A stretch of 62,594 nt of DNA, taken from NCBI GenBank assembly GCA_001938485.1, contig MQRK01245013.1:1-62594 (forward strand), in the 5' to 3' direction. Under the pieces are notes generated by a model. The model did not search any database. It was not told the DNA's origin and saw only the letters and a program-made list of their open reading frames with translations. The stretch is from Girardia tigrina. Taxonomy: Eukaryota. A program made the position numbers and the translations under genes. Of this stretch, positions 1 through 34,399 are shown one piece after another; the stretch's first letter is position 1, and the number at the start of each line of letters is the position of its first letter.

Positions 1-853
1 ATGCCTCAGAGTGGACACTCATTGGCTCTTCGGAGACAATTACAGTGTTGAGGAGTTTAAAAGAGACATTCAGCTGGAGAACCTGTCAACAACGGATGCG
101 AAGATGGAGAAGATCTACACACTCAAGAAGATCAGCAGGAGCGGAGACGAGAAGACACTAAGACTAGTGTTGCCCCGTCTAAAAGAGCACAGTTGCCCGA
201 TGGATGCCTGTTACAAGCAGTATGCAGAGGTGAAGGAGCTAAACAGGCATCTCAGAAGAGACCATGAAGGAGCAGATCCCATCCCGAGGAAACAGAGAGA
301 AAAGAAAGCCCAGCCGCGACAGAAAAAAGGAGTCTACAAATGCCTGCAGTGTCCCAAAGAATACAAAACTGCAGGTTTCCTGAAAATCCATATCCAGAAG
401 AATCACAGAGAAGAGTCGGAACAACCAAACGCCCAGCAAGAAGATAATTTGGTCATCGTGAGAGAGGAAGAGCCGACAACAATTCAATCCAACCCCCAGT
501 TACCGGAAGCAACTATGGGCACGCCGAGGATCCAGACAGAAGACAACACTACATACACTCGTGAAGAATTGCTGCACCAACAATACCGATTGCCAGCCAA
601 TTATGCAAAAGCAAAAGGACATTTCCAGTGCCCATTCAGAGGATGTTACGCGTCCACCGTAACCGCCAAAGGTATGTATGGCCATGGCACCAAATTCCAT
701 GGCTAGTCTTTTGCAACTGGAAAACCGATCGCTCGCAGGCAGAAGGACACTGACCCCGTAGGAGGCCTATCGGGGGGCCCTTAAGGACTTTAGTTTGGGT
801 GGACCCTCTAAAGAGCCTTTAGGCTCAATACCATTGAAAGAGATGGGAGGCCC
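1..853 (+). mobile_element. 3' end of an RTE-like non-LTR retrotransposon: C-terminal C2H2 zinc-finger coding region (ORF 11-706) plus structured 3' UTR
   Basis: The ORF has C2H2 fingers (CPMDAC..HLRRDH, CLQC..HIQKNH, CPFRGC..HGTKFH). The same 3' end recurs 5'-truncated at 53271-53495 (-) and 22399-22440 (+), and is followed here by an AT-rich tail. Confidence 0.7.
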
Positions 854-878
854 ATTATTTTAAATTATTATTTTAAAT

Positions 879-989
879 GGGATACAAAGTCGCTCGCCTC
901 CCCGTGGTGTATTCTGGGAACTAGAAAGAGGGTATCTTCCCCTTTCTAGAAATAGAAGGGGGTCCTTGATCTAGGTTAAATGAGTGGAC
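879..989 (+). ncRNA. HDV-like ribozyme fold at the 5' end of the LINE (catalytic C apparently lost)
   Basis: P1 GGGATAC/GTATTCT with G-U at position 1, P2 CGCTC/GAGTG, P3 GCC/GGT, L3 TCCCCGT, P1.1 GG, P4 closed by CTAGA/TCTAG. J4/2 reads TTAAAT with no C. Confidence 0.75.
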
Positions 990-2189
990 GGATCGACGGG
1001 GCTAGTAATTCTATCTTCCGCTAGTACACAGCTTTCAAAACTCAAACTAGGGGTCTGGCAGGACCCGAAGTCATTAAGCTCCCGAGAGGGGGATCCCTCG
1101 TTAAGGATTTCACTTGCAGTAGACTGAGGATTGAAACATGAAATGGTAGAGGCTTGACCGATGAAAAGATACTTAACATCGCAAGTATCTTTGAAAAACT
1201 TAAAATTGATATGTATATACTCACAGAGACGCACTGGATTGGAGCCGGTATTACCTCTTTCGGGGAGTGGAGGATCCATCATAGTGGCAGTACGAGTAGC
1301 ACAAGAGAAAGAGGCGTAGACATGATGGTAAAATCTAAAGATTCTATGAATATCGAATTCGAAGCGATCAGCGAGAGAGTTTTCCTCTGTCACATACCCA
1401 AAAGGTCGATCACATTGGTAGGGGTATACGTTCCGACTGACAACAGATACTCAAGTGAGGAAAAGGAGGAGTTTTTTGCATCATTGCAGGAACATGTCGA
1501 AATGGCGACGGCTGAAGCTGAGAAGAGAAAATTCGAATTGATAGTTGCAGGCGACTTCAACTGTCGACTTATTTGGACGGAGGAAAATTGCAAAACAGTT
1601 GGGTGTTACACTAGTTCAACAGTAACATCAGAAAACGGAGGTCTATTAATAGATCCGGCCGATGCGTGCAACTTACGAGTAGAGAACACCTTCTACAAAC
1701 ACAAGTTGGCGCAACGAACTAGCTGGACACACCCAGCAACGAAGAAAAGGCTATTATTGGATTTACTCCTGTCGCAAAAGAGCAGATGCAACAGAATAAG
1801 TAACGTCAAAAGTTATCCAAACTTTGACTGCGGCTCAGACCACGATTTAGTCGTGTTAACGATATGAATCACCAACAACAATAAGATACTCAAGTTGGCA
1901 AACGATAGAAAGAAGAAATGTAAAGGTAAAATTGATAGGTTCTCCTTGCAGAACAACAAAGTGGCCATCAGTAGTGACATAGGGCAGGTTTGTTCGAATG
2001 TCCAGAGTTGTGACGACATGGAAGAGGTCATCTTAAAGACCACGGAAAGATACCGAAAGAATAAAATCCCGCTCAATCAAAGGTGGATACACGGGTGATG
2101 GTACAAGAGCGGGCGCAGCGATTTTGTGGCTGCGGCGCGCAGGCGGCGGGGAGTGAACATCAAGTCGGGGGATAAAAATATTTTAATCT

Positions 2190-2568
2190 CACGTTTTTTC
2201 GATTCAACACTCGGAACGAATTCAAGAACGAAGTAGAGGACGATGCAGATGACAGTGACACACGGCAAGATCAGTCCAAGACTCACGAGAACTTGCACGA
2301 CAATCAACCAATACGGATTGATGTAGATCCACATCCCTTTAATCCAAAAAACGTCGGCATATAACTAAAAGTAACCCGAAAAACGATTGTTTTTTAATTC
2401 ACTGTTCTTCGATGTATTGAATGACGTTAACCAAAACGGGCTCGCAGAACCAATCGCATAGAACCTGAGTGATACAAAAACACAGATTAATGCCCCGATT
2501 AGGAGCATATCCACAACGTCCATAGATTGTTCGGATCTAATCATTTGAAAAAATATGGCGACTTTCAA
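2190..2568 (-). pseudogene. Claudin/PMP22-like tetraspan gene 5' fragment
   Basis: ORFs 2365-2568 and 2077-2334 are in the same frame, split by one stop. Pattern: TM1-ASPFW...GMW...WLIVVQVLVSLGLIL-TM2, typical of invertebrate claudin-like proteins. Confidence 0.55.
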
Positions 2569-2861
2569 TAATTTTTTAAAAGAAACTCAAATCACTAAGG
2601 AAAAAGACATTCGCTCCGTAACAAAATTTCATTTTTTTTTTAAATTCACAAAATTCGATTCGATTTCAATAACAAAAAAATGGCGACTTTCGATTTTCAA
2701 CAAAATCAAATTCGCGCCAAAAAAATCTCCCATGATCGATTTAAACAAATTCGATCGAAAATAATTAATAACATCGAATAAAAAACTGGCCAATCAGAAA
2801 GGCCGAATAAATAAATTTAAAAAACACACACACAAAACGTGACACATGAAACACCACTTGA

Positions 2862-3453
2862 TCAGGCATTCACACCAAAGCTAGAAACCACACTCCACTG
2901 CTCACCAAGACAACCGAGAATCGATTCACTAAACAAAGAAACGAGTTGATGAGTTCGGAACTGATGGAAACTGTCAAAGAGGACATCCGATAAACTGTTG
3001 TATAAATTCGAAATGTACGCCGATATTTTGATGATCATTGCTTTTTCAAAATTACCGATAAATTGCGAATCGTTGCAAGATAAAAGTTTCGAATGAGTCA
3101 CTACTGGTAATGAAATATACAATTCACTGAGATTCTCGTTTTCTTGATTTTGGCGTTTCTTAGCGGCAATACGAGATTTTTCTCGTTTACAACTCTGTCG
3201 TTCTCTTCACCATTTTTTCCACCGCCCTCAAAAATTAACGATTCGAAATTATTATTGGTTTTATTGATATAATTCAATTCGTAAAATGACGAATTTGTCA
3301 AATCGTTCGATAACAGTTTTTGTATAATGAGTTTTTTGTCGATTTGATCACGGCATTGTTGTTAGAATCGGCATATTGGGAAATGTCGTGATCAAAAAAA
3401 TCAAAATCGGCTTCGTTTTCTAAATTTGGTGGATTGTAACTGTAATTTGCCAT
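2862..3453 (-). pseudogene. bHLH (HIF/SIM/NPAS-class-like) transcription factor 5' fragment, frameshifted
   Basis: KREKSRIAAKKRQNQENENLSELYISLP...FEKAMIIKISAYI resembles the HIF/SIM bHLH motif (KEKSRDAARSRR...ELAxxLP...LDKASVMRLTISYL). Confidence 0.6.
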
Positions 3454-6217
3454 TTCAAATTTCCGATAAACATTCGTTTGTTATGTTGCTTTGACAACAA
3501 TCGTTTAAACAAACGACAAAATGAAATTGTTTTTTTATCGCGAAACGGGCACCTAGAAGAACTGAAACCACTACTGCAGGAGAAATGGAAACGGAGGAAG
3601 GAGTACATTCAGAATAGATGTGAAAGGACATATTCAATATGGAAGGCCTCAAGATTGAACACCTTGCGGCATCTGAGGAAGTGGAAAAGAGAGAGGATTG
3701 AAACAATCGGACAAGAGATAGAAGGTATTCTCAATAGAGAATGTATGGGCAAGACTTCTGAGTTATACACGGAACTCGGAGTCCTCTGCAATAGTGAAAC
3801 AAAGGAATCCTCTCTATGTACTTTGCAGAGCAGTGTGAAGGACGAAGTGTCAGCAGAGCACTTCTCACATCTATCCAAGAAGAGCGAAAGAGATTATATC
3901 GTGGATATCGAACAGAGCCAAACACTAGACATCGATTACTCACCGGACATAGGAGAAGTAAGTACCGCTATTGGGTAACTGAAGAACGGTACAGCTGCTG
4001 GAAACAACGGTATCATTCCAGAGCTATATAAGTGGGGCGGTCTCCAGTTAACTGAAAAGATCCTGCAATGCTTCGTGAACATATGGAGGGAAGAGCAGAA
4101 TTCCCGGAGGCTTGGAAAACGGCGAAGGTCGTGATCCTATACAAAGGAAAGCGGTCCAAGAAGGAACTAAACAATTATAGAGGAATATTCCTACTTGATG
4201 TAGGAGGAAAGATCATGGCCCGAATCATTGCAAATAGATTAATGCCACATTTTGAAAGGATACTGGATTGGTTTTAGACCAAAAAGAAGCACGGTGCACG
4301 CAATAGGTATCATATGAAAGATACAAGAAGAAGCCAGATACCGGAATATAAATGTTTTTGCTATCTTTATCTACCTTGAAAATGCATTCGACAGCGTACC
4401 CTGGAAAGTTCTCTGGGACTGCCTTCAAGGAATTGGAATACAGGATCAGATGCTGAGCATTATCATGAAGTTTCATGAAGGTTTCACGGGCAGCATAGGA
4501 AAGGATAAGTTCAGAATGGACAAAAGAGTCCGCCAAGGTTGCGTATTAGGACCTCTATTATTCAATCTTGTCTTTGATCATGCAATTAAGACCGCAATCA
4601 AAAAGGGACTATCAGGCGGTGTGAAACTGAACTACAATGGGGAAGAGCTGACCGTGAACAGGCTTGCTTATGATGACGACCTGTGCTTATTGGACGAGGA
4701 CTTTGGAAACATCGAAAGAAATCTCACGTGTCTCAACACTGCGTTCTCGAATATGGAGCTCAAAATCAACATTGGGAAAACGAAGATCCTGAATCTCAAT
4801 GGAGCAAAATACATTACGGCAAGGGACGAGTTGAATGCCGGAATTGAATGGGTGGACGAATTCTGCTACCTGAGATCTTTTTTGAAGTCAGCATTATTAA
4901 TTATCAGGATAAGAATGATTAGGAAACTTGAAATTCAATATTTATAAATTTTATAGTAATAATTGAATTTAATGTTAAATGTTAAATTATTCGAGATTAA
5001 ATTTAAGTGTATTTAATTTAAGTTAATATAATTTATTAGGTATTTTTAAATTATAGTATAGTAAATTATTAGCATTTATAATATTATATGGGTTTACAAA
5101 CTGATATCCTCACAAGAAAATATTTATAAATTTATAAACTTTCATTTTGTGTGTTAATAAAAAAAATGTTTGTTTAAATATTTATAAATTTGAAATTGAG
5201 TGTGTAAAACCGTATATCAATAAAGAACTATATTTTTCAAAAGGAATTAAATTTTTGATGTCTGAAGAACCTAACACAACCATCACCCTAAACTGAAAAT
5301 TCAATTCAGATCATAAGAAAAGTACCTTTCAAAATCAAAATATTTGCAGATATATTAACTATCACAAAACAGTTTCTTTATATGATGTCATTGGTGGCAA
5401 AAATTAGTTCCGCATTGTATTTCAGGACAGATCACTTAATGATAATTGAGTTGTAGTTTTAACTTTGTAAGAACATTAATTCTACTTGCTCCTACATCTT
5501 TATGGATGATAGAATAAGTTAGTAAAAAATTTATCAAGTCAAATAATTTATTTAGAAAATTTCATATAATTTCAAAAATTAAAAACACAAACTAAATTCA
5601 AAAATCTCAAAACTACATAAAATTTATTAGAAAAAGGATAATTTAAAATTACAAAAAATAAAGTATTTCTCATTCAAATTTTTTCAAAATTAAAAATTTA
5701 ATATAATATCACAAAAAATTGACGTATATTCAATTTAAATATTAGCATAAAAGTATAAAAAGTATTTTAAAACACTAAAAATGAATAATTCAAAAAAATT
5801 AAATAAATGTTTCATTTAATTCCACACAAAGAAATATAAATGCATATAAAAATATTAGTTTAAAAGAATTAGGAGTAGTACAATTACAATAATTTTATAA
5901 AATTTTAAAATAAAGATAAAGGTTTGGTGAAATGACTATCGATTTTTTAAGAATAAACAAAAATATCAATCAAAAAAAGGTTTTAAAGAAAAGGAGATGA
6001 AAATTTGTTTAAATTTATGTGTGATACCATTAAAAAATTGTGGCGATCACGACCTCAAGTTCTAATATTGAAGATAGCATAAACGCAACTAACAATCGTT
6101 ATCATTATTACTACTATGAAATGAAACATTATCCGATTGCGGAATCAGTATGGTATTTGTCTTGAAAGGAGGAAAGTCACAAAGATTGTATTATCTCTGA
6201 CTGATAATGTACATTTA

Positions 6218-7506
6218 TTAGGTGTACAAGTATGAAATGCGGATTAAATTTTGAAAAGAAATACGTTAAAAACAAAAGAACGATTAAAAAAGCTTTATTC
6301 AAATATGCTCCATTACTAATGATACATTTGTCCTATCTATATCTCAAATTGTGGATACCTCGCCAGTAAAAGTCTTCCTTTTTTTCCATGAACCATTCAT
6401 TGACCCATTTTTGCACATTTTCGTAAGAATCAAAGCGCTGCTGAGCAAGTGCGTGACCCATCGATGCAAACAAATTGTAATCTGAAGGAGCCAAGTCTGG
6501 TGAAAAAGCCGCATGATGTAAAACTTCCCAATTCATTTCCTCCAACATGGCGCGAACCGGTTTTGATGTATGTGACGAAGCGTTGTCATGAAGAAGAATA
6601 ACCTTGTGTTACCTTTTGAGGTATTCAGGTCTTTTTTGAAGCAGCGAACGGTTTAAATCGAGCAACTGTTGTTTGTAACGTAAAGTATTCATCGTTTCAC
6701 CGGGTTTTAATAGTTCATAATAAATTACACCCTTCTGGTCCCACCAAACGCAGAGCATTGTCTTTCTGCCAAAGCGATTTGGTCTGGCTGTCGATGTGGA
6801 TGNNNNNNNNNNNNNNNNNNNNNNNNNNNNNNNNNNNNNNNNNNNNNNNNNNNNNNNNNNNNNNNNNNNNNNNNNNNNNNNNNNNNNNNNNNNNNNNNNN
6901 NNNNNNNNNNNNNNNNNNNNNNNNNNNNNNNNNNNNNNNNNNCTCTCCATCTGCCTATCGTTCAATTGATATGGTACCCATCGGCCAATCTTATGAATCT
7001 TTCCCATCTGCCTGAGGCGATTGCTAACAGCTTGTTGAGTAACACTTAATTGCTCTGCCAGCTGGTTTTGTGTTTGTGAATCATCTTCGTCCAACAAAGC
7101 TTGCAATTCCACATCTTCGAAACCTTTTCGTGGTTTCCCATGGTCCTTATCTGCAACATCAAAGTCACCACCATGGAAGCGNNNNNNNNNNNNNNNNNNN
7201 NNNNNNNNNNNNNNNNNNNNNNNNNNNNNNNNNNNNNNNNNNNNNNNNNNNNNNNNNNNNNNNNNNNNNNNNNNNNNNNNNNNNNNNNNNNNNNNNNNNN
7301 NNNNNNNNNNNNNNNNNNNNNNNNNNNNNNNNNNNNNNNNNNNNNNNNNNNNNNNNNNNNNNNNNNNNNNNTATCAATTTATGAGTTACGTATGAGACAC
7401 TACATAATTACTCAATATTATGACATCATTGCTTAACCATTGACCTACTTTTTGCATTGTGCACAATCCGTTTTCTGAAATCCGCATTTCCTACTTGTAC
7501 ACCTAA
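6218..7506 (-). mobile_element. mariner DNA transposon, ~1.29 kb, defective
   Basis: TIRs TTAGGTGTACAAGTATGAAATGCGGATT with TA TSD. Transposase motifs [21 protein letters not shown] and FSPDLAPSDY. Confidence 0.95.
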
Positions 7507-8524
7507 TAGATATTTTGTTTAATAAAATTGGTGGATATCTTTGTATTTAAAGAATAAAAATTTAAATACACAACTTTTTGTTTGCATTTTAAGAGACAGT
7601 GATGGAATCGGAAAATTCTATAGATACAAGCAAAGTGAAATGCTTTATAAATAGATTGATTCAGAGGAATCTGGTAGTTATTCTAGTTCAATAGAAAATT
7701 GACTGTCTAACCTAATGACAAATAATTGTGACTAAAATATATAAATAATATTCAAATGTAAACAAATCCGACCCACCAAACAAGGAAGGGGGCGGTCGAC
7801 ACACAACCATATTCCAATGATGGTTAAGAGAGTAGATAGAGTAAAGTTTAGAGAATAGTAATTCTTTATTAATCAATTATATTGGCGTAAACATTTCGAG
7901 TTCTGGCTCGAAAACTAATTTCCAAAAGTCCATCAACAGATGACTCGGTATCTCTTACTTAATGGAACTATGAATAAACTCTATCAATATTTACCTTTAT
8001 CTTAAGATTCCATCTTATGACGCATTTGTCATTTATTTGACTGCTGTTCAGTTTACTAAGTCCATGCATTGTTTTAGTTAGCGATCGGGGATAATGGTTT
8101 GAAGAGGATGTACAGGGAATAGTTCCAAATCCTTCGAGTAGACCATCATACGAACCCATAAACCATCTTCCAAGTCACCCTGTTGTACATACCTGTGTGA
8201 CGCAGTTATAATATTCTAATGTCATCTCGATGAATAAATGATTCTAAACCACGTCAAAAGTAATGCAAATAGGATCAAATCGTACGGAACAAACTAAAAG
8301 TATCAAAATATAGATTCTGCAGTTATACAGTTCAAATATGTTGGGATAATTGAAGGAATTCTCGGTCACGATGGCGCAGAAGGATATGAAAAACAGTTAT
8401 TAGTAATCTTAGATAAAATTATTATAAAAATTCAAAAAACAATAAAAATAACCTTGAAAAAAACATGCGATTGATCAAAGGTCAATTAATCATAACATAG
8501 ATAAATAAATATAAGCAGACTCAC

Positions 8525-8607
8525 CCGTCGAAAAGACAACCAGATAATAAGAGAAGGTATTCTTGAAGTCGACCAAGTCCTCCATCATCTCGGGATAGTA
8601 GTAGAAA
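8525..8607 (-). CDS. TLC-domain protein (TLCD1/2-like), exon 2
   Basis: cag|...|gtgagt splice sites. Encodes (C)FYYYPEMMEDLVDFKNTFSYYLVVFSTG and is in phase with exon 1, which ends in TG. Confidence 0.85.
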
Positions 8608-9399
8608 CTGAATGAAAGAATAATCCCATGAAGGACACGTCATAAATATACTATTTATATACAAACGAAATACAGATCAAAAACAAAACATACCAAACAT
8701 GAAACCAATCAATTTAATAATGAATTTCAAAGTTATTTTAACAATATTACTTTTTTGATCTTCTTTGAAGATCATCAAGATGTTGACCTAAATAAATATC
8801 AGGAAAATATTTTTGAGCCGCCAGTTAAAATAATTAAAATAAATCTTACAAAATACTCAAAATGTACCATGTATACCATGAGAATGACATAAATGTCCGA
8901 CTGCGGAAACTGAGTTCGCATGTACAACGCCTAGGGTAGACAGTCTTTGTGCTAAAGGAAGTAAGCTCTTAATGATAATCAAAGAGAATTTACTAGCCTT
9001 TCATAACTGAATATGATTGTCAATAAAATAATTTTTAATTTTGCTTAAAAACAATAAAAATCGCTACCGAACCATACAAAACATAAATGAGATCCCCATT
9101 TCATGGGATAAGAGCACTGGCAAAATGATTATTAAGACATTGGCTATCATTACAATTAGTCATACCCTATTTGACTCTCAGAAGATCCTTCACCATTTGT
9201 CATCATTCTAATTAGTGCTATTTCTCGATTTTGATTATTCGAACAAATTTCTTCATTTTTCAATAACATTTATTATTTTTTTTAATTTTAAAATATTTAG
9301 ATAAGTTATTAAATTAATCTATTTTGAGCTTTTAACTTGAAAATTATTCCATTAAGTTAGCTAAAAAGTTTTATTACACCATAGAAAAATATTTTATTG

Positions 9400-9940
9400 C
9401 AAGATATTATTTACAAAATAAAAACTATTCAACAAAGTACAGGTCATCATTGTCCAAACCATTTTCCATCGATATACTAGTTAACAGATCTGCTCGAAGT
9501 AATATTCTGGCTTCTTTGAATCAAAGAACAGGTGGCATGCTTCATGGACTTTGTCAATTGACTGGAATTTGCAACCCTTCGTGAAATGCTGCATTGAACG
9601 GAAGAGACCATAATCAGATCGGGCACAGTATGGACTATAGTGTGGATGATGCAGAATTTCGACTCCATCCATTTCTTGGAATTAGTCCTTGATCTTTTTG
9701 ACTGTGTCCGGCTTAGCATTGCCTTGCTGCATCAAGACACACTTTCGGTTGATAAGAGCCGGATACTTAGACTTTAACTTGTTATAAACACGTTTTAGTT
9801 GTTGGCAATACAGTTCGGATGTGATGGTGTGATCATTCGGAACCAATTCGAAATATACAATTCCTTCAAAATTCCACCAGAAGCAATTGATGATCTTCTT
9901 GGCGAATCGAATGTGTTTAGTAAATGATGGCATTTGGTCA
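9400..9940 (-). mobile_element. Degenerate mariner transposase fragment (second family)
   Basis: CFWWNFEGIVYFEL, QQGNAKP, HHPHYSPYCARSDYGLF. Confidence 0.85.
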
Positions 9941-10530
9941 ATTTCCCTCTTGTATTTTGTTTTGTACCAACTAATAATAAATAATGTACAAAATATAAAA
10001 TCTATAAAAAAATCTTTCAAAAATATTAATTAGCATTACATTATGCAAGTGTATTAGTGTATTTGCAACTAAATGAACGGTGTATCAGAACTTCTTGACC
10101 AAATTGGTGATATCCCTGTGTGATAAAATATTGACCGTTAACTCGCCCAAGATATTTGATGTTTAACTAATTTCACATTTTATGTTCGAGTTTTAGTTGT
10201 TTTATTTTTTACTTCATTTTTTCACCCCAAATTTTATTTTAATGCAAGAAGTTGATGGTCGATTTGATTGCAAGCCTTTTTAATATCTTCTACAATTAAT
10301 TAATTTAATTTTAAATGGGGCGAAATGCTTTTGCGATAAAATTTTGTAACTATTTCATTATTTTAAAATCTAAAATTGAATTATAATTTTTCACTATTTC
10401 TATTTGTTTTATAAAAAAGCACATCCGTAATAACTTCTTTTATATTTGAATATCATCCAAACGAATTCTTTAAAATAATCATTCTTCAAATTCTTTATTT
10501 ATTTTGTTAATTATTAATTATCGACTAAAA

Positions 10531-10830
10531 ATGTAATGGTATAATAACACAAACGCGGTAAGTGACAACCACCCTGTAGAATGAAGCAGCTGAGTAGCAC
10601 ATCTTCTCGAGCATCATCTGGCACACCTAGCACATCTTCTAGCACACCTAGCACACCTAGCACATCTTGTAGCACACCTAGCGTGTCTTCTAACACATCT
10701 ACTCGCACATCACACAGAAACATTGAGTACAGCTCACTCAATTCACATTACTTTATAAATATAGAAGTGCGTGCATTCAATTTAGCTGTAGTTTTGCTTT
10801 AGCTTTGCTCTACACCGTATGACACCACAA
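10531..10830 (+). repeat. Possible short LTR remnant with internal CACACCTAG/CACATCTT tandem repeats
   Basis: TGTAAT...ACCACA followed by a PBS-like TGGCG, with an imperfect tandem array at about 10595-10710. Confidence 0.35.
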
Positions 10831-11329
10831 AGTGGCGTGATTTGAATTTGTTTACTTTTCTAATTGTGGAATTAAAACTTACATTGCTAAGTCGGCCCAA
10901 AAATATATTTCGATTTTATGTAACAGATGATGACCTAGAGAGGGGCTATTGAGCATTATTATTAAATGTTATATTTATTTTTTAATAAAAATGTTAAATG
11001 TATAACCTAGATAAATGATTTTTATTGTAAAACAATTAAGATCGAAAAAATCAATAAAATGTATCACAAATTATCATTTGAAAACAAATAAATATAAATT
11101 AAATCAAAAATTAATTTTGCAATACTTTAATTAATTTCTATTTATTTTATATTTCTTTATTTATGAGTAAATTTTAGACTGCTAATTGTATACTGTAAAT
11201 AATTTATTTCTAATCCGGTGAACATTGGACGGATATTATTCGAATTAATAATTCTTAAAGCACTTTTCTTAAATAATACTATTATAGAACATTTTAAAAT
11301 AATATAATAATAAAAAATAGAGATAAGTT

Positions 11330-12410
11330 GCAAGCTTGTTTACAAAGTAGCCATCGATGAAACTATGCAACTCGCTACACGGTCATGGGAAAGAGGGCAC
11401 AGCTTGAGAACCAGAAGCATATTCGTGCAGATGATTCGTCTGAAATGCTGATGTTTTGTTTCGCTTCGGAGAGAAAGACCGTGTTGTGATGGGCTCTCCA
11501 TTCCAGTGTCAGTTGATTCAATCTTCATGATGTTCATTGAAGGAATGTGCACAAGTATAATGGAGGACAACCATTTGTTTATAGATGTGTGTACACGATA
11601 TTCTTGGATTTCAAAGATAGATTTTACATAGAACCCTTTTTAAATTTCTTGAAAGCCATTCATCAAAATATCAATGGAGAATAATAACGATCTTCTATTC
11701 CTGGACCTTCTTGTAAAAAGATTAAATATTGGATATGAAACAGAATGGTGTAAAAATCGAAGAGACGCAGGACTTTATACACGCAAAATGTTATTGTAAA
11801 GAAAATTACTAAGATTGTATGATAAAAGGGCTAGTCCATAGAATTTTGATTCTTTTTTCTAACTATATCTAAATGTGTGGATATTCTCAGCAAGTATTCG
11901 TCTAATGTAGAATGGAATCCACACTCGAAAGATCAAACAGAATAAGGGCGAGCATTCTTAAGTCATAAAAGTAACCTTTTCCTAACTTTCATATCAATTT
12001 TAATGCTACGGAATATCATAACTCGCTGTCACTGGAAAAAAAATCTTCATTATACTTAACGGATTAGAATACATTCACAGCCCAGGCAATCAAATAAGGT
12101 TTTACATTATTGCGGTTTCAGCAAGCATGAAATCTTATTCATTTAAAAGGATGACTTCCTATTCTTCAAACTATTTATGATTCACTTTTTAAGGTGGTTT
12201 TTGTGAATCAATGTTAATCATTCAATATAACCAGTGCTATTGATTCACATCCAAAAATGGGAATAGTAAAGCTGTACCAATATTACTTTGGTCTTACAAA
12301 ATCAAACTGAAATATAAAACTTTATACTCGTATTTTTGTTACCATTTACCAAAAAAAATATTTGTTTTTATTTATATCTCGTGATGATGAATGTAGGTTG
12401 AAAAATGTTT
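11330..12410 (+). mobile_element. Highly degenerate Penelope-like element fragment
   Basis: RT C-terminal motif LFLDLLVKR..GYETEW, and a 3' region similar to other PLE ends in the window (CATCCAAAxATGGGAA, also near 18520). Confidence 0.6.
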
Positions 12411-13008
12411 TATAATTGTTAGATTCGAAATCATTAACTGAAGTCACAACACGTAAAAATATATTTCTATAACAATAACGATTTTTAAAACAATTTTTCG
12501 AGAAACTATATTCTTATTTTGTGAAAATCAGAAATAAATAAGTATAAATATAAATATGATTTTATAATCGTCATAAATTTATCTAAACATTTTTTTATTA
12601 AAATCTTATCGTAAATTATTAAATTAAAATGCTTAATATTTTAATTAAAACCTTACTGCAACTTATTAATTTTAAATTCTCATTTCTTATGAAAACGTTA
12701 TTTTACGTTAGTATGAATAGCTCAATTCTTGATCACATTAAAAATGCAGAAATAAAGTTAACTATAAAACTGAATTTACAGTTTTGAAGAAAAGTTTTGA
12801 CACATCAAGAGAGGACAGTCACTGAGGCATAATTAATTATCCAATCATATTAAAATTTTTTAATATTAAAAAAAGATTAATTATGCAATAGTCAATGTGC
12901 CATATAAATGATGTGTAATCCGAAATTACTTCGCAACTGAGGATGCAGTAATGGCGAAACATGTTTTGCACAATAAAAACTATTAAAATGACATTTTTTC
13001 TTTATTGT

Positions 13009-13059
<51 letters not shown>

Positions 13060-15459
13060 ATGGTAAAATCTATATAATAGGGATAAAAACAAGACGACGC
13101 GTTTCGAGATAATAATTTTAGCCACAATGTATATATTCTGACGTTAAAATCAATTATTTTTTGAACAACTTGGAAAGAACGAAGGAATTCAAAACAAAAT
13201 GTATTTTGTCGGTGTGCGATTGTTTTGCATTGGTCAAATGTGNNNNNNNNNNNNNNNNNNNNNNNNNNNNNNNNNNNNNNNNNNNNNNNNNNNNNNNNNN
13301 NNNNNNNNNNNNNNNNNNNNNNNNNNNNNNNNNNNNNNNNNNNNNNNNNNNNNNNNNNNNNNNNNNNNNNNNNNNNNNNNNNNNNNNNNNNNNNNNNNNN
13401 NNNNNNNNNNNNNNNNNNNNNNNNNNNNNNNNNNNNNNNNNNNNNNNNNNNNNNNNNNNNNNNNNNNNNNNNNNNNNNNNNNNNNNNNNNNNNNNNNNNN
13501 NNNNNNNNNNNNNNNNNNNNNNNNNNNNNNNNNNNNNNNNNNNNNNNNNNNNNNNNNNNNNNNNNNNNNNNNNNNNNNNNNNNNNNNNNNNNNNNNNNNN
13601 NNNNNNNNNNNNNNNNNNNNNNNNNNNNNNNNNNNNNNNNNNNNNNNNNNNNNNATATATATATATATATATATATTCTAACAAAAAATTATTTAAAATA
13701 TCACTAATAATTAAAATATAATATCATTAATAACAAGATTTTTGATCCAGTAATAAATATCTGAAATTTAATATCAAAATTATTTTTTCTATTATAAGAA
13801 ATGAATTAATTAACACAGAATATTCATTTATTAAATCAAATTAAATATGGTCAAAATATAATTATTTTATATATTATGTAAAAAAATGCGCTCAACATTT
13901 CAAAATCGATTTTATATCTCTTCAAACCAAAAATGGAGGATGATCAAAAATCATTTGTTTAATTATGCAAAAATTATATTTTTTGTAAAAGAAATTTCCC
14001 CAATTTTGTGTCATGGTAGAGAAGGAAATGTTTCCTCAAATATTATACAGTATCAAATTTAAATTAGAAAGATTGTCTGTAAATTAGTTCCTTCATATTA
14101 AAAATCATTCCCTCTTTTAGAACCAATTATTGAGATTTTAATTCTTTTTATGCCACAATGCTGACATGATTGTCAGAATAGGCGCTCCCTGATTTGAGAA
14201 TGTGAGGAATATTTGGAATGTTTATGTTTTGTATTTGAATGTTGTGTGTCGATTTGGGATTGTCTCTCTCCTACGCAGATGGATGATTAATATTTTAAAA
14301 CTTATTATCTGAAACTAATTTATTCACATTTATTTTTAATTTATTATGATTGTACATTTTAAATGATTTCATTAATTTTATTTTTAAATTTGTAAATTTT
14401 TCAATCAAATTGATATTTTTAAATGATTAATAGTAATTTTAATTTTAACTATTAACATTGTTAGTAAATATTTTTAAAAGAATATGTAGGTTCAAGTTAG
14501 TTCAGATTTTTGGATGAAAATTATGAAGCTTTGATCGGTGAATATGAGTGAAAGCTCTTTGTAGATTCTCAGAAAGATAATCCAAATGTAATAAATGTAG
14601 TAATAAATGTGTTAGTTCTATTAACAGAATACATTACTTATTTTATTATTTATAATATCCAATTATTTATTTATTTGATCATTCTCATTCAATATTTAAA
14701 TCAAATATCATTTATCATTAAGCCAAAAATTGAATTGTTTCCGCTTTCAGATATGATCGGCATTTACAAATTTGATAGTTTTTTACTTGGCTTGATCACG
14801 GACACGCAACTTATTTGTATGATGTTTACGGATCATTTGTTAATGTTTGTGAAACGGCATTATTCATTTTATATATCACAAACAATCAATTTTTAACATA
14901 CTTTAAACGTTGAAAATAAATGTACTAAAAAATTTTATTTTACAACTTTCAGTCCTACGATCAAAATGCTCCTAAAATGTTTGTTAAAAAGTAGAATTGC
15001 CTAAATAATCTTGAGTAACCAGTATCGGTGATCAGAGAACGACCCTGTCTAAAAGGAGTCAATCCTTATTATATTTATATACAACAAGGATGCCAATAAA
15101 CAATCTATTTTATGAGCTATTGCGTTGGCTTTCATAATACCAATAGTTCGTATTGTTATCCCACTTGTTTATTCATCATGGTATACTTAACCCTTGGAAA
15201 TATGGTAAGTTTCTGGTAATTTTAAGGTTATTCTAGTCCATTTTTTATGTAAAAACATTCAATAATTTTGATGGGAATGTCCACAAAGGAAGTTCTCGAT
15301 TCTCTATGTCCTTCCTTAGACTATTTTCTAATTCTTTGTGCATCATTTGCTCTAACAAAAATTGAGAGTTTCTGATTTTGCTTGCAAATTTTTTTGCGTA
15401 CATAATAATTTTTACTTTTTTTATATAAACAAATAAACGCCATTTAAAAATATATTTTA

Positions 15460-19594: not shown

Positions 19595-22398
19595 ATTGTT
19601 AATTAAATATGATTGTGATGAATATCTTAAATTGTATGTGAATGTAGTATGTTGAACCAAGAATGGTGATTCTCCCACTCGGATGGAAATTAGTATCTTT
19701 GTATTTACATATAAGTGATTATTCGAACATAATTAAAATAATAATAACGAAATGATACTAATCTAATAAGTTTGAATTTTTGAATTAACAATTAAAATCA
19801 ATTTTAATATCTCTATTTTTAAAGGTAATTTTTATTGTTTTAACTATTTAAATTGATATATCTTAAAATAATGAAATTTACAATATTTTGATTAAAGACA
19901 ATTTTATAAAATTTAAAAGTAGTTTTTATAACATATTTATGTCTCGAAATTTTTAATAAAATGAAATTTAAATTTAAGATATTTTTACAATTGATAAAAT
20001 ATTTTTTAAATAAATTAAAATAGGAATTTATTTAAAGTTCTTATAATAAAATGGTGTAAAAATAATTTAAACTAAGCTATGAGATTTTAAAAAGAAGCAT
20101 AAAGATTATTAATTTTATTAAATATTTTTGAAGTGAAAAGATAGTAAATATTTTATCACAAGATAAATAAAAATTGTTCGAATAATCATTACTAAAAAGA
20201 CAGAAATAAAATCTAAAGTTGTGATGACTCTAAATATGATGTTAATAAATGTTTTCAAATTAATTTTGTCAGCGTACTTAACAATGATCGTAGAAAGTGT
20301 TTCGATGTTTTTGAATTATAAATTTATAGAAGTTGTTATTCTAAAATATCAAAAAATAATTTAAATAATTTTGGTTAATAAAGGTCATTTGCATTTAATT
20401 AAAGATTTTTTGATTGAAGGGACCTTACTTGGCCCATTTGCATGTTAATTAATGGCTTATCAAAAGAAATATTCACAACTTAGTCGATCGAATACGTATC
20501 CTTTCCCTGATGGCTCAAAGAGTACCTTTGGGGCTAATTTAGGCCATTTCGGGCATCCGAGAAGTTTTTCGGATGAAAGAAGCATCAAACTTATTATGGG
20601 CTACACAAAAAAACGTTTCCACAATCCTTCTCGAAAGTAGCATTCCTTTAAGTATTGGATTTTAAACACAATTGTTACTGAGATATGTTTCAGTAAAGGC
20701 AACTTTTTTGCATTTAAATATAGAGACAGAATTTCCCCTATTTAGATTCCCAGGAATAATACGTGAAAGTATGTCTTACTAGCAAACACAGCGATCCCTG
20801 AGTCAATTGAGTAAGGTTCTTGAACTCAAACACAAAAATTATTCACATTTGTTTACCAGAATATTTTGATGGTCTCAAATATTGTTAAATAATAGGCAGA
20901 AACAAATTTAAATAGAGAAAAGTGTTCACTTAAAAAATTATATATTTATATAAAACGTATTTAAACTGTGGTTCAGAGGTGAATTATTTTAAACAGTAAA
21001 GTGAATATTGGGTGGAAATATTCCATAATCCTTTCAGTCGTCCTTAAATCCCCCAGTTCCTGTTGATTGTATTAATTTGTAGAATAGATTAAGTTTCAAC
21101 ATTTAATTTTTCTTTTTCGTTATCATTTGTTAATTTAAGGACTTTGTGACCCTTCGGTGAAGAAGAAGAGAGAGAGTATTAATTGATGAATCATAAAGAA
21201 GAAGCGATAGAATGATCTCAAGACAACTTATACGATTAACAATATTTTTTGTGGATATAAAATAGAAATTCAAACGCAGCTTCGAAATTTCCGTTGGTGA
21301 CAAATGAAGAGGAAGTGTTCGTATAAGTGTGTTGAAGTAACAGTAAATTGACTAGAGTATCAAGGACGAGACAAGGACACAGCGAACAGTCATTCTTTTG
21401 TCTATCTTCCTCGACTGAACTCTGATCATCAATAAATAATGCATCACTCAACTACAATAAAATATAAAGAAGTCAATTAATAAATGAAGAAACTATTAAA
21501 AACAATGTCTAAAACATTCACGCAGATAATGTTTCTGAAAGGTTGTTTTCTTTAGGAAGGCATTTATTAACCTTTAAGGTATAGAAATAAGGAAATGATT
21601 TTTCGAAAATTATAACTGATTCGAAATACTATTGAACTAAAATTTTAAGATCATTTCTTAAAATTTCCTTTAGGACTCACTGGTACATAAGCTATGAGTA
21701 TACACTTATACGAGTACATATTTTTTTATTGAGTTTTGGTAAGTTGTATGTTGAGAATATGCCCAAATTCTATATATTTTTTAAAATTAAAGTTTTAAAG
21801 AATAAATATGAATGATATAAAAGAAGTCCCCCTTTGACAAGACACCAAAAACCATTGTCCTTTGAAGGGAAGAAAGTATTACTCATAATTGTTACGAAAT
21901 CGCGAAGGAAGTCGTATATGACTGATAAAAGTGTTCCTTTTGTTACGACAAAGTCATAGAAACAGAGATGACGAAACAGAGCTGTACAGTTACTTATATT
22001 TCTGTCCTAAACAATGTCAGTGTCTTATTTTAGTGATAATCAAAGACATCCAAATAATTATTATTTATATTTTTATTATTATATTTATTCATTTATTATG
22101 TTTACAACGCGTTGTTAAAATATCTGTTTCAGTTAGTAAGGGTCACGTTTGACAAAATGGAGCTACAAAGATTTATCAGGAAGTATTGAACACAACTGCT
22201 CATAAGAAGTTCGAGGATACTATAGCAAAATGATACTGCCTGCTGATCAGTGTTTTCAAAAGTTTTGGTATTTCATTACCCTTCCATGATTTTCGTTCCG
22301 CTGCCTACTTCTCGCTAACAATCGCATATTGCTATTACAATGTGCAGATAGAATAAACATTGCTTTTAGACAGTGAGATTTACTTTAATAACAATAAA

Positions 22399-22440
22399 GA
22401 GCCTTAGGCTCAATACCATTCGAAAGAGATGGGAGGCTCA
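22399..22440 (+). mobile_element. Extremely 5'-truncated RTE insertion (terminal ~42 nt only)
   Basis: Matches 813-853 and is flanked by the direct repeat AACAATAAA. Confidence 0.7.
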
Positions 22441-23031
22441 TAAACAATAAAAAATACTTGTTGTCATTTTAGTACATATACAGAATAATAAGTGAAAATA
22501 CAAATCAATATATAATAAAAGGTTGAGAAGTTACCGAGCTTTATGTCTTGCAGAGGATGGAGGGAAGTGGAATGAGACTCGATGTCGGAAGGAGAAGAGC
22601 TGAAGGTGACGGAAGACAATCGAGAAGGAGAAGAAAGAGTTTCGAATTTTAATTTAAACGGTAGAGAATTTTTTAAAAATGTTAAAACAGTGACAAATAT
22701 GTCTTACAAATTTGTAAATATTTTTCAAATTATTTTTTTATTTGTATTTTACCAATCAAACATCGTTAAGCACACACGTGCACACATACACACAAACACA
22801 CATATGTACATGCATACACACACAACGTGACACATTGCAAAGTGCGAACTTTATCTTTGTGATCGACAGCCAATCAAAGTGAAAGCAAATAACAAATTAG
22901 TCAAATAAACACTTTCAAATTAATTTTTAAATTAAATAAAACAAATGAAAATTACGCGAAACTTGAATAAAATAAATAACGATAAATTCGTTTATGTGCA
23001 AGGCGTATTTCCTAGAGAGACCGTCAGCCCA

Positions 23032-25400: not shown

Positions 25401-25624
25401 TTCTAGCTTAGTTAATTCTCATAAATATCAAATTGTCGTTCACAAACTCTAAAATAAAGAATGATTTGTTTGAAATCATTTTATATATTACTATTTGTAT
25501 AACTTTATATTATTTAATTATAAATTTTTGTTTAATAAAAATAAAATTATATTTAATTTATTAGTTATTAATTGGTGATATTTTTTATTCGTGTCAGCAT
25601 GAAGGGAGAGCGATGAGCACTAAC

Positions 25625-25842
25625 CAGAGCAGGTCCCAGGAGCCGACGATGAGGGCGTGCACCCAGGACATGAGCAGATTGCGCCATTTCCACGACTCGT
25701 CGGGTCCCTTGGCCCGGATGACGGGCGGCACGAACCAGAGGCCGATGGCCCTGTTCACCAGATGGAACCACCCGATCACCATGCACATCACGCCCACACC
25801 GCACCGATTGTCCACCCAATACGACTCGCTACCGTCAATCAT
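25625..25842 (-). CDS. TLC-domain protein (TLCD1/2-like), exon 1
   Basis: MIDGSES...WKWRNLLMSWVHALIVGSWDLL matches the TLCD start of the TLC domain (WRWxNxxVSxxHS). Donor gttagt at 25624. Confidence 0.85.
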
Positions 25843-26888
25843 CGATCGATTTCAAAATTATTTTTCAAAGTCGCGTAATTTTTAATCGATTAAAACAAAA
25901 AACGATTTCGCTTAAATTAGATTTTAATCGGCTTATTAATTTTGATTTTGTTTGATCACTTTTTTCAATATTATTTATCGACAAAAAATCGTTTTTTGTT
26001 ATTTTTTCTTTTCATGAAATGATTTATCAACGGAATTATGTGGAGGACGTTAAAATTTCATCTCGCCAAATAATTTATTTAGAAGATTATCAAATTTGTT
26101 ATCATAAAATTAAAAATTCAAAAACAATTTGTAAGTTATACGAAAACTTTCAAATTGAAATTAAAAATTAAGACATGATAATGCAAAATTTTTTAAAGTA
26201 TATATTAAAATTACAAAAAAAGTTAATTTATAATCACACAAAAATGGAAACATGTAAATTCAAAATTTTTAAAAACAAAAATTAAAAAGGTAATTTCAAA
26301 AATCACATAAAATTACAATTTTTTCTAATTCAAAATGTTTATTAAAAGCAAAACAAATTACATGCCATTTTCAGTTTTCGAAGTTTTCATATTATGATAA
26401 ATATTTATCAATATTGTTGAGGGAATATCTCAAATTATATAATTTATATGTATTTGTTGTTTAAATTAATAAATATTGACAAAAATATATAAAATTATAT
26501 TTTTTATATACATAAATAAGGGATTAAAGAGAAGTTTAAATAAATAAAAGAAGAAGGAAAGATAGATATTTATAAGAAAAGAGTAAATTATTTATTTAAA
26601 TTAAAAATAAAATTGATTTTAAAAGAAAGACCTANTATAAAAGGTCATTGTTAATTAAAAAGTTCAGAAGTTAGAAAGAAAAGGTTATTATTCTTAAGAG
26701 TTTAAGTTACAAGAATTTGTTTAAGAGAAAGACTCATTTGAATTTTCGACCAGACGTCGCATAAATTACCTGCTCAAAATTGTATTTAAGTGAGCAATAA
26801 TCAGAGTGATCACAGAGTCATTTTAAATTCACACCGGAAGAGTGCGAGTGGAATCAATTTATCTAACACTGAAATAGTGCAAGATTTA

Positions 26889-29819: not shown

Positions 29820-30468
29820 TGTCACGACCCATTTGTTCGTAGCAGTTTTGAACGCTCAGAGCCCCCAGTGACTGTTAAGGGTCAGTCACAACCCAGTCTT
29901 AATTTATTACTCAACTATGACTATATATATTACTTATACATTATAGGGTCGGACGCCTCTTTTCGCTCGACATCTGCCTGGCAGTGCCGAGTCTGAAGGG
30001 CCTGCGGGTTCGGATAAAGATGGGATGGGCTATGGGCCCCCCACCTAACTCAGAGCCGATCGGGGTATGTTTTGTACAAATATTCATCAGTAGATTTGGA
30101 TCACGTCTATGCTTAATAGGTATGCTGAAACTTGTTACACGGTTATGTCGATTTATAACTTGTGGCCTTGTGTTATGTGATGTTGAGCTTATGGCAATGT
30201 TGTGTAATGTGGCTTGCAGCACTGTTGGGTTTCTAGAAGTATTATCAACAACAGTATGTGTTGTTATCGTTGTGTAGCTCATTTATCTCGCAGCATATCG
30301 ACAATCAGTCCCTTTGTACCTTGCGCGGATTCATTGTTTCCATATAACAGTTGTATTTATATTCATATAACTTGTATTAATATCATTTATATTTATACCA
30401 AATATATTTATATCAATCAAAGTAATTATTAATATCAAAAATTATATTAATATCATGATTACGTCACA
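29820..30468. mobile_element. Solo LTR (~650 bp)
   Basis: TGTCACG...CGTCACA termini with a TATA target-site duplication inside a (TA)n tract. Confidence 0.7.
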
Positions 30469-33149
30469 TATATTTATATTCATTTAAATAATTATTAGTA
30501 TCAGACCTAAGTGAACTGATTAAATCACGAAATTTGTTCGATCACTATCGCGTCAAATTCTTTAAGATATCCTATTAGTTCGATTTGGTAACCTTACACC
30601 GGAATCAATTTGGAGTTTTTTAATAAGATTGAAAAACTAACCAAATCAGCGTTTTCAATTTTCCATTGTTAAATAACAATTTATTACATTAATAATTTCG
30701 CGATGAGTTAATTATCTCAGTGAATTCTCATTTATGAACTGCAATAAAAATATTAATTCATAACATTTCTTTACTAGGGATTCATTAGCTTGTAATTATA
30801 TTAAAAGAACTCCCAATTTAACTTGAGTTATTCCAGACAAAACAAAAGTCTACTAAGTTGATATTCATAAATCGATAAAATAGTTACGTTGATACAGATC
30901 GGTTATTATAGAAATTCTAGCTAATAATTTTAGTTAACAATTCGAGTTAATAGTTTGCAGGATTTCTTAGAAATAATTCACGTAATTAGATAATTCATAG
31001 AAATAATAATTCATAATCTAATTCAAAATCCTAAAATTAAAGTAAATGGTAAAATTAAATTAAATTACTCCTAAAATTCAATTATAATCCTAATTTTTTT
31101 AAAACTCGTGATAATGATAAGACTTAATCATAAAAAAATTATTTGTTTTAACGAAATAAATTGCATCGCAACCTTGGGATGTTTTTTCGATTTTCCCCAA
31201 AGAAATTTCTATTCTTATTCGCCTCGTTGGCGTTTTTCATGGCATGACTACATGGCCAGTCAAATATGAAGGTATCGGTACTGTGGATTTTAATTGTCGG
31301 AATTATTTACTATAGATAATCAACATTCGTTCATAAAATTTATAATTCACCCAGATTCTAATTTTCTTAAATTGACTAAATTAAACATTGCCTACAATTA
31401 GACATCACTGTAAAATTAAACACTTAATAAATAACTAATAACCAGCTGGGATCAATAACACTCTGAGATATTACATCCCTTACTATAGTAATCACTGATA
31501 AAAATAAGCAATAATAACAAGACGGTGACTAAAATCATAAGCTAAGGTATATTTAAAAGAAAGGGTTTCGTTCTAGTTACTCGGCCGTACGACACGGCCG
31601 AATTCACGACTCTGCATCCTCGATTGGTCATGGCTATCTCAGAGAAACAATTCGAGGGGCACCGAAACTACTTCGAGGATAATTGGGTCGGTGTGATTAC
31701 CGACGCTCCTCCAGCGCGCGTTGGAACGCAAATTATCCCGGGGCATAGTTGAAGGCGACGACGGCGGGGCGATGAACTGTGGCTAAAAGATTAAATAAAC
31801 GGTAGAAACACGATCTTCCGTGCTTAGGATGACCCTGTTTGATCTATTAAACGATATTAGTCTGAACGATTAATAACAACACTTTGGTCACGCTTTCAGG
31901 GCAATCACTTAAACTACGACATTGACACAGTAAAATCAAAACGTATAGAAAAAATAAAATAAAAAAATCGTAAGAAATTCACCAAAATACTTTTATTGTG
32001 TAAAACTGAAGAGTAAAATAAATAAAATTACATTAAAATCACGCGATGCGTGCAAGTGCCCGGAGGTCCGCTCGGTAAATCGCTCGTCGTTAACTCGTGT
32101 AGGCTCCTCTGTTCGTCGACGCGTCTCTGGATAGAAGCGTCCCTTTAGGTATCGTGGATCGATTTCGGTTGTAACGAGAGATTCGTAGATGCTACGATCC
32201 TCGTCTAAGCTCGGTTCAATTTCTTCTTGTCGAAGTCCTTCTCGATAAGTCACGTTCGCGGTTGCGTTGAAAATCGAAGTCAAAATCTTGCGTAAAAAAT
32301 TCGTAAGAAAATTGTGCAAGTTGAAAATTGTGCGATAAAAATTGTGCGTTTTTGTCTGAGTGAATGTTATATTTATAACACTCACCATTTCGTTTGTCGG
32401 GGTGTGTTCTCTTCGTGGCCGTTTCTGGTTGGCCAACAACGATGATTGCTTGTTTTGATTTGCCGGTACAGGTTGTTGTTAGGCCGTGTGTCTGACTCCA
32501 GACAGTGACTGCTTTGTCACAAGGTTCCTTGTCACCGATGACTATTCATCGCGTGACGCTGCTCTTTCTTTTGTGGGCTTGACTCACCGTAAGTTTTATT
32601 TACTATTCTTTGTCTGACTTAATTGGCCTTTGTCCTTCTTTAATTAATTTATTTATCTTTTCAGGGGTATAACTTTTCAGGGGAACGTGTCAGGACTTTG
32701 CGGGTGACCTTCAAGGATTTCTCGTCTTCGGGGCTACAAGTGGATGGTCCGTTGGTTTTATAACGTTAATGGCTCGTCCCAGAGGTGATTTAATTAATTT
32801 TGGTCTCTTTTTAATTAATTATTTTCTTTTTTAAAGCAATTAACTCCTTTCTCAGCGTTTTCGGGGTTCGGCAGTTCCATTCCAAAGACACATTATATTA
32901 TTTGGTTCTTCTCATCGGGTATGCTTTCATTTCACTTGTTTGATTTTCCTCATCTATCGTTTTTAGTTGTGATATAATGCTGCCTCTCAGACATGGATGA
33001 ACAAAGACGATCCTGGGACCCACCTTTTGTGTTAATAATGATTCAAATAAATGTATTAATCTCATGGGTCTTTCTTCTTTATATTCTCTTTCTTATTGTT
33101 TATAACTATATGTATTTTATATTATGTATTTGATTTCTCGACCGCAACA
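30469..33149. mobile_element. Long LTR-like non-coding segment
   Basis: Ends CGCAACA next to (TA)n, has a CpG-rich non-coding core at 31570-32900, and no convincing protein. Confidence 0.4.
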
Positions 33150-34399
33150 TATATATATGAAACACATGGTATAAGCAATTAAGTGTCGAAGACAAAGTAC
33201 TCGTTAAAGAAAGCGGAGAGAGTAGATTCGGTAAACCAATATAAAGTGGACCATATACAATACAAAAGATTTTAAATAAGTATACTTATATTCTTCAAGA
33301 TGAAACATCGTAGAAAGTAATGAGAAGAAATTATAATCAGTTAAAAAAATACAATTGGGAATTAAACGCACCAATAGATTATGAATCAAGTACGTCATTT
33401 ATATCCAGGAAAGAATCAATTGCCAGAAAGACGAGATACCCGATTAGAAGCACCAGGAAACCACTACCAAAATATTGTTGATTTCCAAAGGGGAAGTTAT
33501 ATTATAATTTATGATAATTATTAAAAATGAATAAAAAATAGAAATTATTAATAATAGGAATTTATCTTGTTTAAAAATAAATGTTTAAACATTGTTTTTT
33601 GTTAATAAATATTTAGTAAACCATCTTATTAATCTTTTAAGACTATATGTTTGATGATAATTAAAAAAATATAAATAAAGGAAGGAAATTAGTCGATTAA
33701 AGAAATTCGATTAAACGAATTAGATGAATGGCACTGATCTCGATCCTATTTTGGTATCTTTAGAAACCGGAGAGTTGTCATTTTGCAATTCAAATCAAAG
33801 TGCTTCAAATTCACTGAAACAGAAACGAAAAAAATCTCAACGAAAGAAAACGAAATCAGAAAGTAGAAAATCATTGAAAGAATCAATCACTACAGTTGTT
33901 GATCAAGAGTACTGATTGTGTTAAAATGTGTATACAATTAGGGTGAAGAAAGAGCTCTCAGAAACGGAAATTATTTCATTCAATTGTTTCAATTTCGTCG
34001 TATCATCCTTATTTTGCAATTCCGTTCTTGATTCATAAAATATTTTAAATGCTTTTTGATTATCTATAAAAAATTTATTTCAATCAATCAAGCGTGATAA
34101 AGTCAAAATAAATCAATCACCGTAATCCATTGGACATTTTGTGGTATGTTAATTTCGAAAAAATTCAAATTGTAATACGGAAAAATAATTCAAGGGACAA
34201 ACTAGTGGAAAAATCAATTTGAATTGAACGGGCGATTTTTTTGAGTATAAAAAACAAAAAATCGAATTTGTTTGTGGTGAATAATAAATCGAATTTGTAT
34301 GTTGATGTGCTTTTGTTTAAAACGATCATCTGTATGCGATAAATTAAAGGTGGAACATGGTTTTTGTAATCGATTCGAACTAAATAAATTATTTCGGCG

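Follow-up and report, generated by a model that had tools for sequence, protein, structure and literature searches.

Mobile cassettes with a common scaffold and variable host-gene fragments in Girardia tigrina, plausibly solo long terminal repeats

The contig MQRK01245013.1 of Girardia tigrina (assembly GCA_001938485.1), which was analysed over its 62,594 nucleotides and is called the window here, contains a decayed long interspersed nuclear element (LINE) that is interrupted by a 1449-bp insert, cassette A. We found that cassette A inserted into the LINE as a single unit with a 5-bp target-site duplication, and that two siblings in the same window, cassettes B and C, belong with it to one family, in which a short head, a promoter-like core and a conserved end are combined with variable gene cargo in one orientation. 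The explanation towards which we lean, with somewhat more confidence than doubt, is that cassette A is a solo long terminal repeat (LTR), left by a family of LTR retrotransposons in which host mRNA pieces would lie within the terminal repeat, on either side of the repeat's promoter.

A first-pass annotation made from the sequence alone had proposed that the insert is bounded by a direct repeat of ACGGG and that its removal restores the frame of the LINE, and both statements were confirmed. The two copies of ACGGG directly flank the insert (Table 1), and the LINE frame is in register across it, with PLNQRWIHG on one side and HLEELKPLLQEK on the other; stop codons on either side of the insert mark the decay of the LINE. 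Four of the 24 listed public sequencing runs (X1 to X4) were compared with positions 700-4950 at 80% likeness. X1 and X2 are DNA-type runs, while X3 is possibly an RNA run and hence gives no evidence of expression; the run search had given 17 rows with part of the stretch, none with half of it and none recorded as RNA. In all four runs, contigs were found in which position 2090 is joined directly to position 3545, namely three contigs in X1 and five in X2 (5 letters fitting both sides in each run), one in X3 (3 letters) and one in X4 (4 letters), where record 28 joins 1872-2090 to 3545-3952. The short side of these joints measured 34-219 letters, the longest being that in X4. The contigs represent paralogous copies of the LINE family, possibly from related species, rather than the orthologous site, and they indicate that the family exists without the insert and with one ACGGG. 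Together with the 5-bp duplication, these empty-site joints support the earlier proposal that the insert arrived as one unit after the LINE. Cassette A has a GC content of 36% and a CpG observed/expected ratio of 1.76, compared with 0.75 for the LINE, in a window that is AT-rich and in which CpG is not depleted; this composition and the initiator match described below are in keeping with a planarian host. More fragments of the same LINE family lie at 53260-53513 and 22395-22441.

Both gene pieces of cassette A lie on the minus strand, and the order from position 3544 downward is a short head, an initiator match, a piece of a basic helix-loop-helix (bHLH) gene, a spacer, a claudin-like piece and a GC-rich end. 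The annotation had described two unrelated gene parts around a promoter-like spacer, and this arrangement stood, while the identities of the two parts proved less firm. The first piece is weakly supported as HIF-alpha-like: its bHLH domain, within 2967-3206, matched Pfam bHLH_HIF1A (PF23171) with E values of 0.024 and 0.017, which are below the curated cut-off, and the piece showed 41% identity over 86 amino acids to the protein P0004, which itself matched bHLH_HIF1A with an E value of 2e-5. Contigs of X3 and X4 match 2912-3190 at 96-97% and then continue for about 650 nt unlike the window, indicating that position 2912 is a junction with the parent gene or a sibling, and record 19 of X3 joins the bHLH piece and the spacer (2782-3218). 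The second piece can be taken as claudin-like only as a lead, for its match to Pfam Claudin_2 had an E value of 0.21 and read through one stop; it probably carries an internal deletion. A relative of this piece, the assembly protein P0005 (European Nucleotide Archive, 862-nt contig), matched Claudin_2 with an E value of 0.079 and gave Atlas feature matches of 0.77-0.80 (under 0.9). Searches of the PDB sequences returned nothing for the bHLH piece and nothing meaningful for the claudin-like piece. Neither parent gene was found: the protein search with the bHLH piece gave only P0004 and an unrelated repeat protein, P0003, and the search with the claudin-like piece gave 1 of 6 candidates. Judging from its stops and frameshifts, this copy is decayed and probably has no present activity.

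The spacer appears promoter-like by its motifs, which were all present as the annotation had claimed, namely CCAATC, TTCGCGCCAAAA (2711-2722) and two AAxATGGCG sites (2552-2560 and 2677-2685). In addition, the putative planarian initiator TTTGTTTAAATA, taken from Table S3 in the accessible part of PMC10558129, is matched by a 10-mer that occurs twice in cassette A in the sense direction, which was seen in none of 300 shuffles; one of the two occurrences lies 30 nt inside the element. The core is partly duplicated in tandem at 2548-2665 (profile match E 1e-4 to 1.5e-3, with a 21-nt repeat), and this duplication could mark a site of repeated template switching.

The annotation had suggested a search for further copies of the cassette, and it had missed the family: two siblings with the same end and promoter core and with different genes lie in the window. 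In A, B and C, a short head, a gene piece, the promoter core, a second gene piece and the conserved end follow one another on one strand, and each unit ends in ATCA; the 5-mer after this end is found again at the start of the unit, exactly in A and C and at 4 of 5 positions in B. The shared end, about 130 nt long, finishes at 41115 in B and at 34936 in C and occurs nowhere else in the window. The alignment of the A and B ends was better than all 300 shuffles, and a profile built from A and B only recovered the end of C (E 3e-5) and its promoter core (E 0.001). The cores share an architecture of an initiator-like motif, a TTGGCGCGAA-like word and CRCCAT 36-41 nt further on; the A-B and B-C comparisons both scored 53, a value reached by 0 of 200 shuffles and by 0 of 621 window tiles per query, whereas the upstream regions of two likely host genes scored 23-35 against the cores, which is the level of shuffles. 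The first 12 nt of the A head differ from B at 39425 by 2 mismatches, and the head of C after the duplication was matched by chance in 0 of 200 trials in a post hoc test. The cargo slots themselves have no similarity between units. All five identified cargo pieces are oriented in the sense of the element, and no intron-sized gaps were seen in the protein matches of CFAP61, STI1 or the bHLH piece. Because the siblings carry different genes, it is unlikely that the two parent genes of cassette A were mere neighbours copied as one genomic piece. As for the surroundings, cassette C apparently lies within the 3' end of a Gypsy-like remnant, and by eye B and C are surrounded by other mobile-element debris.

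The interior of the cassette is multicopy, and the conserved end far more so. The insert was fully covered in both DNA-type runs, and all 30 bins were covered in every run. Summed depth over 2262-3539 was 5,000-29,000 in X1 and 2,300-14,300 in X2, whereas the bin 2120-2261 reached 294,000 and 274,000, respectively, which is comparable to the LINE itself and, in these two runs, exceeds the adjacent interior bin by a factor of about 10-19; the depths rest on the pieces listed and are not copy numbers. Single interior contigs were found at a depth of 1873 in X1 and 2082 in X2, and the other 7 of the 8 long pieces listed per run had depths of 160-228 and 77-268. The excess at the end implies that many elements have the end and fewer have this cargo. 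Loose ends at 2138 in X2 lead into other sequences that have only the outer part of the end in common. Deletion variants of the interior were also seen, with a joint 2363 to 2424 in three of the four runs (18-28 letters on the short side). When metagenome contigs and viral contigs were scanned for the pattern of the shared end, each set gave 0 matches.

The constant 5-bp duplication, the CA end, the strong conservation of one end and the promoter-like core in the interior agree with a solo LTR whose U3 and R regions vary. Such an LTR is expected to be flanked by a duplication of 4-6 bp, as is found in A (ACGGG), in C (CTATA, exact) and in B (4 of 5 positions), and the expected CA end is present in all three units when the duplication is read as 5 bp. 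The conserved GC-rich end would then be U5, ending in the CA that integrase joins to the target. Reverse transcriptase would switch from the element RNA to co-packaged mRNAs and back, mostly after reaching the 5' end of the mRNA, so that the cargo would consist of sense-oriented, mostly 5' pieces without poly(A). Repeated rounds could swap the cargo and thus give rise to subfamilies with one scaffold and different genes. Finally, a full element would have integrated in the LINE, and recombination between its two LTRs would have left one.

Several observations weigh against the solo-LTR explanation. First, with respect to the termini, only C starts with TG, while A starts with TT and B with GG; all three duplications, read along the element, begin with C, and a 4-bp duplication with a CAC end is also possible. 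Second, no full-length element, primer-binding site, polypurine tract or gag-pol was seen in the window, the end profile finds only three units there, and no shared poly(A) signal (AWTAAA) lies near the ends of A, B and C. Third, the A-C and B-C ends were pairwise not above shuffles (27 and 44 of 300), the A-C core comparison scored 33 with 20 of 200 shuffles as good, the heads are short (under 20 nt) and the head segments as wholes align no better than shuffles (70, 169 and 94 of 300), and the start of B is tentative (12 of 200 by chance). Fourth, the abLIM piece is an internal part of its gene rather than a 5' end, and, the parent genes not having been found, any loss of introns from the cargo is presumptive. 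Fifth, misassembly could explain P0005, which is a single assembly protein and the ODR4 call of which falls below threshold.

A further proposal, that the terminal repeat is itself built from host mRNA, with a fixed core and ends and two slots that are refilled with the starts of unrelated transcripts, seems to us possible but short of probable; the cargo counted in it comprises HIF-like, claudin-like, CFAP61, STI1, abLIM and ODR4-like pieces. Among the observations in favour of the solo-LTR explanation is P0005, in which 47 of 55 residues are identical to the claudin-like piece from about position 2382; its continuation agrees, as read by hand, with a loose end at 2223 in X3. The start of P0005 is instead weakly ODR4-like (E 0.0014, below the cut-off and not confirmed); searches with this part gave 0 of 30 candidates and no Atlas match. 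P0005 is thus possibly a further subfamily, or else a misassembly, and, if it is real, it suggests that the cargo of the second slot has been swapped. Should the slots be refilled in this way, chimeras of two genes, driven by the promoter, would be spread over the genome in thousands of solo repeats, and these would be a record of the mRNAs that enter element particles.

The main rival, which we consider unlikely, is a Pack-type non-autonomous cut-and-paste DNA transposon with short imperfect inverted ends and a 5- or 4-bp duplication, mobilized by a transposase in trans and loaded with cargo at the DNA level by gap filling or fork switching. In its favour, the unit is single, is flanked by a duplication and lacks an internal repeat; B and C both have TGATAA, their end in reverse complement, 7 nt in from their starts; the initiator-like motif that precedes gene piece 1 could derive from a host promoter captured as DNA; and multicopy Pack-TIRs are known in animals, according to the available portions of PMC8277862. 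However, no terminal inverted repeat was present among the 25 longest of the 51 inverted pairs in A, and B and C have no more than an offset 6-mer. Conservation extends over about 130 nt at one end and under 20 nt at the other, and a shared internal promoter core together with all-sense cargo without intron-sized gaps is unexpected from DNA capture. The one-sided conservation, the far greater depth of the end than of the interior and the all-sense cargo would also suit a 3'-anchored non-LTR unit, SINE-like (short interspersed nuclear element) or Penelope-like, whose end a trans-acting reverse transcriptase would recognise and whose variable part would arise from template jumps during target-primed reverse transcription. 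Such a unit is improbable in our view, for there is no A-rich or simple-repeat tail, the 5-bp duplications are equal in the three units and the far-end heads are similar; moreover, Rfam gave 0 families at gathering score in the window, ribozymes included, and the two sub-threshold matches in the insert were at chance level.

Two other explanations have very little chance of being correct. Helitron-like rolling-circle elements with captured gene fragments and a 3' hairpin are not known to make a target-site duplication, and the 5-bp duplication shown here has already largely refuted this possibility. The GC-rich end and a 6-bp stem in A are in its favour, and multi-gene cargo is typical of Helitrons in the parts of PMC6431247 at hand; on the other side, the TC...CTRR ends are absent in A, B and C, and the end folds no better than shuffles (z of -0.77, -0.06 and 0.11), so that a 3' hairpin at the conserved end was dropped as a candidate. 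A one-off repair patch or copied genomic segment, with the parents and a host promoter as neighbours and ACGGG as microhomology, seems about as remote. The core does resemble host promoter grammar, and one likely host gene has an initiator-like motif followed by a CG-rich word; yet the interior looks repeated and has deletion variants, B and C have the same scaffold, and the host upstream regions compare with the cores only at shuffle level. Last, a LINE-made processed pseudogene was rejected, as there is no poly(A) tail and the cargo consists of 5' or internal pieces without the 3' ends of the genes. The annotation had argued from the missing poly(A) in the same way, and its argument holds against LINE machinery but leaves room for an RNA origin, since LTR-made retrocopies also lack poly(A) in the material consulted from PMC5131818.

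Table 1. Positions of the host LINE, cassette A and its siblings in the window
Feature	Position	Strand	Remarks
Host LINE	2-4947	+	Decayed; Pfam zf-C2H2, Exo_endo_phos_2, RVT_1
LINE zinc-finger open reading frame 1	2-706	+	Pfam zf-C2H2
LINE endonuclease	1142-1867	+	Pfam Exo_endo_phos_2
LINE reverse transcriptase	4318-4947	+	Pfam RVT_1
Target-site duplication, left copy	2091-2095	+	ACGGG
Target-site duplication, right copy	3545-3549	+	ACGGG
Cassette A, whole element (1449 bp)	2096-3544	-	Limits set by the empty-site joint 2090 to 3545 in four of four runs
A, short head (about 13-20 nt)	3525-3544	-	Resembles the starts of B and C; begins with TT, not TG
A, TTTGTTTAAA	3504-3513	-	Matches the putative planarian initiator; 30 nt into the element, before gene piece 1
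A, gene piece 1	2912-3453	-	5' part of a putative HIF-alpha-like bHLH gene; candidate ATG at 3453; frames broken
A, promoter-like spacer	2545-2911	-	Aligns with the spacer of B
A, CCAAT box (reverse)	2790-2795		In spacer
A, initiator-like motif	2740-2749		In spacer
A, TTGGCGCGAA	2711-2720		In spacer
A, CGCCAT/YY1-like site	2677-2685		In spacer
A, gene piece 2	2200-2544	-	Membrane-protein fragment, claudin-like by eye; in-frame stop at 2365-2367
A, conserved GC-rich end	2096-2220	-	Ends in CATCA; common to B and C; possibly U5-like
Cassette B	39422-41115	+	CFAP61 and STI1 pieces, shared end; flanks CCTAT/CTTAT
B, CFAP61 N-terminal piece	39617-39936	+	CFAP61_N, E 1e-7 and 2e-5
B, promoter core	40350-40450	+	
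B, STI1/Hop 5' piece	40500-40967	+	In-frame 26-aa internal deletion in the first TPR region
Cassette C	33648-34936	+	TG...CA ends; exact CTATA duplication
C, coding-like piece of unassigned identity	33724-34035	+	
C, promoter core	34355-34452	+	
C, abLIM-like LIM piece	34485-34705	+	abLIM2 LIM domain, E 7e-5

Several other features of the window were observed. The segment 22520-23480, with CCAAT boxes, TG repeats and a 40-bp tandem array, was considered as a further sibling and rejected, having neither the shared end nor the core; a 14-mer and a 21-of-23 match are common to it and the spacer of A. On the minus strand, an intact intronless BTB-BACK-Kelch open reading frame of 621 amino acids, much richer in GC than its surroundings, lies at 45345-47210, and a GC-rich coding-like exon with an initiator-like motif upstream lies at 25590-25900. 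The latter, which served as a host-promoter control, had no Pfam match and is presumably TLC-domain-like. A 3.3-kb TG...CA-bounded stretch in TA repeats within Gypsy-like remnants (29820-33149, with a possible inner end at 30468) may represent either a single long LTR of the ordinary kind or a nested pair, and two mariner-like copies, at 6216-7508 and 35008-36270, are about 96% identical.

That mobile elements capture genes is known, but the usual cases are isolated events in which the cargo lies between two repeats. In these 62 kb, all three units have different cargo at corresponding positions, a pattern that suggests that capture is routine in this genome. If the solo-LTR explanation is true, the family would be an abundant natural supply of chimeric gene fragments that bear a promoter, and perhaps also of small RNAs directed at host genes, in an animal whose stem cells are germline-competent. 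It would also disturb the annotation of the parent genes and the mapping of reads to them.

LTR-mediated retrocopies, Pack-TIRs and flatworm solo LTRs are all already known, and the cassettes resemble each of them in part. Host-gene cargo slots inside a terminal repeat were not described in the literature searched, the coverage of which was incomplete and does not establish their absence from print; in the planarian literature, the accessible parts of PMC6431247, PMC11410931 and bioRxiv 10.64898/2026.01.28.702291 describe giant Gypsy elements and nothing resembling this cassette. Gene-capturing Helitrons share with the cassettes multi-gene fragments and a conserved GC-rich 3' end, while the cassettes differ in having a duplication, no CTRR end and a hairpin not above chance. 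Pack-TIRs and Pack-MULEs, with Ssk-FB4 as the example in the excerpts of PMC8277862, are likewise multicopy non-autonomous units with host gene pieces and target-site duplications. In the same excerpts, Ssk-FB4 has inverted repeats of about 700 bp, duplications of 9-10 bp and genomic cargo with upstream sequence and introns, whereas the cassettes have no clear inverted repeats and a 5-bp duplication. Flatworm solo LTRs with duplications of 4-5 bp are on record in the portions of PMC4558846 available to us, and these elements (ta-TRIM and lennie there; planarian Gypsy/Burro in those of PMC6431247) are alike in being single units with a 4-5-bp duplication and promoter-like content in a flatworm host. 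Compared by description only, they differ in that these portions describe no host-gene cargo inside the LTR, the captured domains of Burro being in the polyprotein. A further counterpart is in Tan et al. 2016 (PMC5131818), whose consulted sections report that LTR elements in animals capture mRNA, with template switching as the proposed route, including multi-gene chimeras without poly(A) that still transpose. As is proposed for the cassettes, these LTR-mediated retrocopies, and maize Bs1 cited there, consist of partial mRNA pieces from at least one gene on an LTR scaffold, lack poly(A) and can spread non-autonomously. Their cargo, as given in those sections, replaces part of the internal reading frames between two LTRs, whereas in the cassettes, which are putative LTRs, the repeat itself would house the cargo, in two slots around a shared promoter core, with genes that vary by subfamily.

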